From Eledone cirrhosa (taxonomy: Eukaryota), in contig OZ024755.1 of the NCBI GenBank assembly GCA_964016885.1, positions 26,412,001 through 26,476,000 on the forward strand: a DNA stretch of 64,000 nucleotides, given 5' to 3'. This document shows positions 31,161 through 31,516 of the stretch, one piece after another; the stretch's first letter is position 1; every line of letters begins with the position of its first letter. Under the pieces are notes generated by a model, which had not been told where the DNA came from, made no database searches, and saw nothing but the letters and a program-made list of their open reading frames with translations. The position numbers were made by a program, and so were the translations under genes.

Positions 31161-31162
<2 letters not shown>

Positions 31163-31510
31163 AAGAAAAAGGGATGAAATCGAAAATGCAACTGAAGACT
31201 TATTTTTTAAAAAAATATATATATTTATTTGGTTCCTTTACCGGTTTCGCAGTTCTTCTGCTTTTCAAAAGGTGAGTTGAGATGGAGGGTCTGTGGTTTT
31301 TCTCACATGTGAGAAAAACCACAGACCCTCCATCTCAACTCACCTTTTGAAAAGCAGAAGAACTGCGAAACCGGTAAAGGAACCAAATAAATATATATAT
31401 TTAAAAAAAAATAAGACTCCAGTTGCATTTTCGATTTCATCTCTTTTTCTTTATACTTCCACTCGTGTAGGACACCTCGGTTATTTTTCATTTTGTAAAA
31501 AAAACCTCAC

Positions 31511-31516
<6 letters not shown>
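31161..31516 (+). mobile_element. Fold-back mini-PLE: spacerless palindrome 31161-31453 plus tail; HHRs at 31343-31380(+) and 31235-31272(-)
   Basis: Centre cacatgtg at 31307/31308; CCUU-UUGAAAA-GCAGaagaaCUGC-GAAAC-CG-GUA-AAGG. Confidence 0.85.

Follow-up and report, generated by a model that had tools for sequence, protein, structure and literature searches.

A hairpin insertion in the genome of Eledone cirrhosa, probably formed by the head-to-head joining of two Penelope-like element ends

Introduction

Does a palindrome with a hammerhead motif on each strand represent a mobile unit of its own, or was it assembled when a retroelement inserted? This question is raised by positions 31161-31516 of a 64,000-nucleotide stretch of the genome of Eledone cirrhosa (GenBank assembly GCA_964016885.1, contig OZ024755.1, 26,412,001 to 26,476,000 of the forward strand; referred to here as the window, in which all positions are counted). 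A sequence-only reading had offered two interpretations of this locus: an extreme 5'-inverted truncation of a Penelope-like element (PLE), or a self-standing, non-autonomous hairpin retroelement that is cut whichever strand is transcribed. For PLEs, PMC8557442 describes a 5'-truncated copy that lies inverted at the 5' end, together with a one-sided tail of 30-40 bp and a bias towards (TA)n; palindromes at pLTR 5' junctions as well as solo pLTRs are described in PMC3846280 (Pen2a_Av, Pen2 and Pen3a); inverted pLTRs are used as a curation feature of PLEs in PMC8969392. The origin of the PLE inverted repeats is named as open in PMC8557442, and the later steps of insertion are left unvalidated in a study of the Poseidon element of Anolis (PAc; PMC11167929). 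In the open-access literature we found no work testing whether the arms of PLE insertions stem from one or two templates, or whether the junction corresponds to the RNA 5' end, and nothing that treats Penelope-like elements, twin priming and inversion together.

Materials and Methods

Palindromes were searched by self-BLAST on the microsatellite-masked window. For the stretch, 21 public runs are listed, 16 of which contain part of it and none of which is recorded as RNA. Four of the 21 were aligned to 31280-31516 at likeness 85: X1, which consists of contigs and is possibly the window's own source sample (7883 records aligned); X19, raw RAD reads from a different sample and study with the same species label as X1 (2827 aligned); and X4 and X7, which carry other labels (10 and 2 records aligned). 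In 12 of the 16 run rows the share was less than half, and X7 is the only one of those 12 that was used. The run tables give the best-supported rows, beyond which lie 44 variants, 5 indels, 233 loose ends and 7938 pieces; no listed piece covers the whole stretch. X19 over-represents copies with upstream sequence, 355 molecules ending at one place, as with a shared restriction site.

Results

Anatomy of the insertion

The following features make up the locus and its borders:

31137-31162, no strand: (TA)n target microsatellite on the left; the exact edge of the element could lie anywhere within 31159-31163
31161-31307, minus strand: inverted, tail-less pLTR-like copy; its outer end mirrors 31455, the natural family end that is followed by (TA)n
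31235-31272, minus strand: minimal type I hammerhead motif with U3/A8 core, H17 at 31239; mirror of the plus-strand motif
31304-31311: fold-back centre CACA-TGTG (G at 31306 in the parent); 5' boundary that recurs in the family
31308-31455, plus strand: direct pLTR-like copy as far as the tail-less end
31343-31380, plus strand: minimal type I hammerhead motif with U3/A8 core and palindromic stem III, H17 at 31376
31456-31516, plus strand: unpaired tail of 61 nt, spanning the gap between the two family 3' ends
31517-31577, no strand: right (TA)n target microsatellite

The palindrome is centred at 31307/31308 with zero spacer. In a global alignment the two arms (31159/61-31307 and 31308-31455) differ in 7 of 149 columns, four of which lie in the T/A homopolymer 31400-31405 and the remaining ones at 31416, 31419 and 31442, while the inner 92 bp are identical. 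The arms of about 147 bp, the unpaired tail of about 60 bp, the (TA)n on both sides and the absence of coding sequence that had been read from the letters were all borne out. The element holds no real ORF, and among the ORFs of at least 100 aa only a microsatellite frame (30786-31163) touches its edge. The frame that starts at 31309 stays open for 13 codons and then meets a TGA inside the hammerhead core; by eye, the sequence found upstream of the family's boundary (see below) is open in the same frame. These codons could be the last ones of a parent ORF, although the stretch is too short to judge and the frame is broken in a relative at 12901. Just outside the (TA)n runs lies a short imperfect inverted pair (31127-31137 and 31577-31587), which extends no further and is probably due to chance.

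Hammerhead motifs and predicted folding

The plus-strand motif comprises a 4-bp stem I (CCTT/AAGG), the core TTGAAAA, which has U3/A8 in place of C3/G8, a 4-bp stem II (GCAG/CTGC), GAAA, stem III CCGG and UA. A strict hammerhead descriptor matched at seven places in the window and at none in each of 20 block-wise dinucleotide shuffles. At the level of motifs, the proposal that a hammerhead occurs in both orientations (plus 31343-31380, minus 31235-31272) is thus supported. Rfam gave no hit at the gathering threshold across the window. Its 39 weak hits over 31100-31600 include no hammerhead family and belong mostly to generic miRNA-hairpin models; they were dropped as hairpin-driven shape matches. 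The isolated 66 nt are predicted to fold no better than shuffles (z = -0.68), as expected for such a small motif, and the 27-nt hammerhead stretch had no exact match in metagenome_contigs and viral_contigs, which hold mostly non-animal DNA and are hence uninformative here. At 31342-31343, about 54% of the X1 family depth has TA for AC, a change that would shorten stem I unless the partner change is among the rows beyond those given. Further hammerhead motifs with palindromic stem III and long stem II lie at 25962 (minus) and 18971 (plus).

The motif is of the minimal, dimer-dependent kind. Minimal PLE hammerheads are reported to show no cleavage as monomers and little as dimers (PMC4209133), and the same source describes U3-A8 cores and, in Schistosoma mansoni, pairs of hammerheads that lie on opposite strands at distances of 100-700 bp and that it reads as truncated PLEs. 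The motif described here shares with these the U3/A8 core, the short stem I, the palindromic positions around stem III and the opposite-strand pair, with cores about 80 bp apart; it differs in a 4-bp stem II without an extra unpaired base on its 5' side.

Whichever strand is transcribed, the antisense arm emerges first, and each strand carries one sense copy of the ribozyme. In computed foldings of the full transcript, forcing stems I and II to form costs 68.4 kcal/mol on either strand, and forcing stems I, II and III costs 73.8 kcal/mol. For the arm plus tail alone the corresponding costs are 4.3 and 9.7 kcal/mol, and in transcripts that start between both motifs the ribozyme is free at an extra cost of only 2.4-2.9 kcal/mol. 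The read-through RNA is predicted by equilibrium folding to form a duplex of about -232 kcal/mol in which all but the tail is buried. Because the ribozyme meets an antisense arm that has already been transcribed and pairs with it, cutting on whichever strand is transcribed is unsupported, and for read-through RNA we reject it on the burial cost of 68 kcal/mol, with the reservation that these are equilibrium predictions. Read-through RNA should, by a large predicted margin, form double-stranded RNA of about 147 bp rather than self-cleaving RNA. Together with the minimal, dimer-dependent motif, this burial cost tells against a self-standing hairpin element that is cut on either transcribed strand.

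A high-copy family with a recurrent boundary

Depth drops sharply left of 31307, and in all four runs the loose ends found there share one upstream consensus (593 reads of X19, 53 contigs of X1 and one record each of X4 and X7). This common consensus identifies the arm as the end of a longer parent sequence, which is seen upstream of the centre as 30 consensus letters. The loose ends behind 31455 are (TA)n (58 contigs of X1, one record of X4), and 31455 and 31516 behave as the two 3' ends of the family, 31455 being a natural one. The locus is accordingly not alone, as had been anticipated: other copies exist in the public runs and form a high-copy family. By rough floor estimates the family has about 4000 copies, at least about 50 of them with this centre; the latter floor is the summed depth divided by 31 overlapping words and by a single-copy depth of 10, and summed contig depth is not copy number.

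The palindrome centre is also present in raw reads, its region being crossed by reads of X19 and by contigs of another study. It recurs in two sequence forms, here given as counts of depth and not of loci. In one form the centre keeps the parent's G: in X1, 31 contigs do so at 31306 and 31 at the mirror position 31309, and in X19 the G is kept by 17 of the 32 reads that cover 31306 (9 starts) and by 9 of the 39 that cover 31309 (7 starts). This form makes up 1.2-2.7% of the X1 arm depth and 2.9% of the X19 reads, or about 1-3% overall. The perfect centre accounts for about 6 X19 reads, a figure obtained by subtraction, as against 26 of the commoner, G-keeping form. About 97% of the family depth is not of hairpin form. 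Joints to other sequence fall on the same boundary: one side lies at 31306-31313 in 7 of the 11 joints of table 5 and in 7 of the 10 of table 5c, with 2 common to both, and the partner side falls within 31337-31393 with a single exception (31297); most joints are single contigs with a shorter side of less than 30 nt at likeness 85 and were flagged as weak. The reference holds no parent sequence upstream of 31307, and this edge accounts for part of the accumulation of joints at 31307/31308. A clustering of joints at the ribozyme cut site 31376/31377 was considered and rejected, one of the 11 joints of table 5, a single contig, being located exactly there.

According to the sequence-only reading, one centre shared by many loci would mark a mobile fold-back unit. 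The centre does recur, so that the answer is formally positive. However, the same boundary also occurs with other partners or with none, and since it recurs without the hairpin too, the recurring centre does not decide for such a unit.

Alleles of the two arms

Outside the homopolymer the arms differ at three bases, and two of these differences (31419 C/T and 31442 T/C) are common family alleles in X1, with shares of 25% at 31419 and 12% at 31442. The chance that two of three random changes hit such alleles is 0.0004-0.0009. One record of X4 (record 12) covers 31412-31455 with two differences, continues into (TA)n and, by depth sums, appears to carry both alleles, like the left arm. In X19, 31419T and 31442C are rare (24 of 993 and 2 of 975 reads), so that their frequency is library-dependent. 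The family is polymorphic, for instance at 31342/31343 (54%), within the region in which the inner 92 bp of the arms are identical. The arm alleles favour two templates over a snap-back copy; gene conversion could yield the same alleles, and the identical inner 92 bp fit either model.

A solo relative and siblings in the window

Further insertions in the window bear on the boundary and on the layout:

12901-13090, plus strand: diverged relative (77% over 65 nt, E 1e-8), solo between (TA)n runs, with no inverted arm
39769-40828, plus strand: sibling of another family with the same layout, a 170-nt spacer and a hammerhead core (no clear stem II) in both arms
53662-54185, plus strand: sibling of another family; near-spacerless palindrome; each arm has a hammerhead core whose halves lie 101 nt apart, and the tail is about 130 nt long
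50178-50520, plus strand: sibling of a third family, in which the inverted copy and not the direct one carries the tail

The relative at 12901, which reached a local score of 113 as against a maximum of 76 in 300 shuffles, starts directly after (TA)n at the base homologous to the centre. Stems I and II are kept, GAAA is changed to GCAA and one core A is lost; stem II shows one compensatory double change, which, being based on two sequences and not significant against shuffles, is suggestive only.

Hammerhead cores are present in the repeats of all three siblings. The expectation that their layout matches that of the hairpin holds in so far as the layout is common to all three; it falls short in the tail carried by the inverted copy at 50178-50520 and in the 170-nt spacer of 39769-40828. 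In the latter, a PLE-type ORF is represented by its C-terminal endonuclease end (40114-40524), for which an exhaustive HMMER search returned 4065 homologues; two of these (713 and 720 aa) have an RT-like YRDD motif and hold the matched domain C-terminally, and the Atlas returned GIY-YIG-named clusters at 0.93-0.95. Pfam recognised no family in this piece or in any of the eight homologues scanned, and word-indexed protein searches with it returned nothing. The siblings' homologues may be Nematis/Neptune-type PLEs. The endonuclease end ties the head-to-head layout to PLEs within the window, and not to the parent of the family at 31161-31516.

In its starting position, the direct copy of 50178-50520 agrees to within 4 nt with the copies at 13200 and 59424. 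In this sister family (13200, 50343 and 59424), all three independent copies, an identical tandem at 13484 being counted once, start no more than 4 nt apart and have three different upstream partners: a 52-nt piece of the tail in inverted orientation, an inverted copy with its tail, and what appears to be plain flank. Under random truncation with a mean of 300 nt, the chance of such a shared start in all three is 0.0003.

Several neighbouring structures were recorded besides. The tandem units 13150-13365 and 13434-13649 are 100% identical and split by (TA)n, representing a duplication or an assembly repeat; each joins the inverted 52-nt tail piece to a hammerhead unit that belongs to the 50178/59260 family. 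At 12266-12812, an insert from another family, with (TA)n on either side, carries a second U3/A8 hammerhead motif at 12720-12766, with stem I TGCC/GGCA, stem II GTCC/GGAC and a UC site. Across 12260-13650, three different hammerhead-bearing families follow directly on one another, each in the next (TA)n run, as though every insertion provided a fresh target for the one after it. A LINE-like RT remnant occupies 27136-28728 (zf-RVT, E 9e-7; weak RVT_1 match), and self-BLAST detected older or shorter imperfect palindromes at 20529-20779, 47100-47199, 52669-52783, 38632-38686 and 3747-3794.

Discussion

Five of six features listed for PLE insertions are found at 31161-31516: a hammerhead motif in the terminal repeat, a copy cut short on the 5' side relative to a longer parent and fixed at its 3' end, a head-to-head inverted copy, a one-sided tail between two family ends, and an AT-rich, (TA)n target; the sixth is a parent ORF with telomerase-like RT and GIY-YIG endonuclease. 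The complex insertions of EN+ PLEs, as presented in PMC8557442, PMC3846280 and Fig. 1C of PMC2377424, resemble the locus in the head-to-head copy, the palindrome at the junction, the tail at one end, the hammerhead in the repeat, the AT-rich or (TA)n target and the lack of a discernible TSD. They differ from it in that the present insertion has no ORF body and a tail of 61 nt as against 30-40 nt, and in that its junction lies at a fixed boundary and its arms carry different family alleles. PAc shares the AT-rich target and has a tail bounded by two internal RT start sites, and its protein cuts and extends both target strands; the PAc ORF starts inside the hammerhead, and no such start is evident here (PMC11167929). 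In the accessible text of that study no treatment of inverted copies or of the joining of two cDNAs was found. PLE ends with an inverted copy and a tail are a layout already described, hammerhead pairs on opposite strands have been on record since 2014, and as an object the insertion is ordinary. Animal non-LTR retrozymes (PMC7229834; bioRxiv 10.64898/2026.07.22.740005) are likewise short and non-coding, carry a type I hammerhead and derive from PLE pLTRs. They are described, however, as head-to-tail tandems in which two same-sense ribozymes release a circle, which a head-to-head unit cannot do. Assignment to this class was rejected, the copies being inverted and the upstream loose ends matching nothing on 31280-31516.

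In twin priming of L1, two cDNAs are made from both target strands and an inverted 5' segment is joined by microhomology. There the second priming takes place at an internal position of the same RNA, and the segments are non-overlapping, whereas here the arms cover the same sequence.

The locus is probably a dead-on-arrival insertion of an endonuclease-positive PLE, in which two pLTR-length copies stand head to head, with no ORF between them; no RT/endonuclease ORF of the parent was seen, the view upstream being 30 consensus letters. According to this model, the PLE protein would cut (TA)n and prime one cDNA on each target strand, one at the tailed and the other at the tail-less site, using two different pLTR templates. 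Both cDNAs would run for about 150-210 nt to a fixed stop, most simply the RNA 5' end, where their 3' ends would anneal through 2-nt self-complementarity and be joined at insertion. Pairing of AT with AT would yield the perfect centre seen here, and pairing of CA with TG the commoner form with the parent's G. The hairpin would then have been assembled at insertion and would not itself be the mobile unit. We infer the joining of the two cDNAs; dual priming has a biochemical basis in Poseidon: the purified PLE protein is reported to nick AT-rich DNA and to extend the two strands, starting from two positions inside the RNA that set the limits of the tail, and it is predicted to be a dimer, with the hammerhead dispensable for insertion in vitro (PMC11167929). 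A fixed stop of the template, the RNA 5' end being an example, would be the simplest common cause of the recurrent boundary at about 31304-31313. The boundary carries an initiator-like YYANWY, a hexamer that occurs at 2.2% of positions, and no DPE-like word was seen by eye at +28 from it; Penelope transcripts are described as starting inside the pLTR (PMC2377424). The interpretation as a 5'-inverted truncation of a PLE is thus retained as regards the longer parent and the two 3' ends, but the break point is not random, as the same boundary recurs.

That the two arms came together at the time of insertion is very likely, be it by dual priming or by self-priming of a single cDNA. The latter, which taken by itself is possible but rather unlikely, would have the cDNA stall at the near-palindrome CA-GATG-TG of the parent, fold back and be copied into the second arm, with the endonuclease resolving at the tail-less site; the arm differences would have arisen later by mutation or gene conversion, and PLE origin and timing would be unchanged. 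Such a snap-back agrees with the commoner centre, which keeps a 4-nt loop and a 2-bp stem (26 X19 reads as against about 6 with the perfect centre), and with the identical inner 92 bp. Earlier work has read the palindromes found where inverted PLE copies join as self-priming (PMC3846280), and the tail has been attributed to resolution by the endonuclease (PMC8557442). Nevertheless, a 2-bp stem is too weak to explain the hot spot alone, alleles that segregate in the family account for two of the three point differences between the arms, and the relative at 12901, although it is without the near-palindrome, begins at the homologous base. At 13150, moreover, the inverted partner is a 52-nt tail piece with zero overlap with the direct copy, which snap-back cannot produce. 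The centre that recurs in at least about 50 copies (a rough floor), also in the raw reads of X19, could alternatively point to a self-propagating fold-back subfamily. Here a hairpin master would be transcribed whole and re-inserted in trans by a PLE protein gripping the single-stranded tail, with copying through the 147 bp of duplex RNA and the seeding of tens to hundreds of same-centre copies. The tail indeed stays outside the duplex, and non-autonomous PLE derivatives are known (PMC8557442; bioRxiv 10.64898/2026.07.22.740005). We consider such a master improbable: the centre has two sequence forms, the boundary is also seen joined to many other partners or to no partner at all, some 97% of the family depth is not of hairpin form, and the RNA duplex of about -232 kcal/mol would bury the ribozyme and all but the tail. 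In addition, the left end lies exactly at the RT start site of the family, which a re-copied hairpin has no reason to reproduce.

An origin from a DNA transposon, as a foldback element or MITE whose arms are long terminal inverted repeats, would account for the long inverted arms, the absence of coding sequence and the TA at both ends. It is highly improbable, since the 61-nt tail lies outside the inverted repeat, which means that the two ends do not form a TIR pair, since most copies lack the palindrome and continue into a longer parent, and since the arm holds a structurally conserved hammerhead. Fold-back chimeras can be generated during library preparation, and no listed piece spans the locus from flank to flank; even so, the chance that the hairpin is an artefact of assembly or library is next to negligible. 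As the sequence-only reading had argued, the mismatches between the arms speak against it, seven columns being different and two of them representing known family alleles. Furthermore, the left end coincides with a natural end of the family, raw reads from an independent sample and contigs from a different study run across the centre region, and three other families in the window have the same layout. The hairpin insertion is real and no artefact.

Should the improbable hairpin master nevertheless exist, it would establish a "retro-foldback" class of non-autonomous elements, and its spread would supply ever more perfect double-stranded RNA on which silencing or A-to-I editing could act. For the preferred explanation, two PLE ends joined head to head at insertion, the significance lies in the combination of a recurrent junction with arms that carry two alleles, which makes the locus a test case for how the inversions of PLEs form. 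If the arms come from two templates, they would provide genomic evidence that the PLE dimer primes both target strands.
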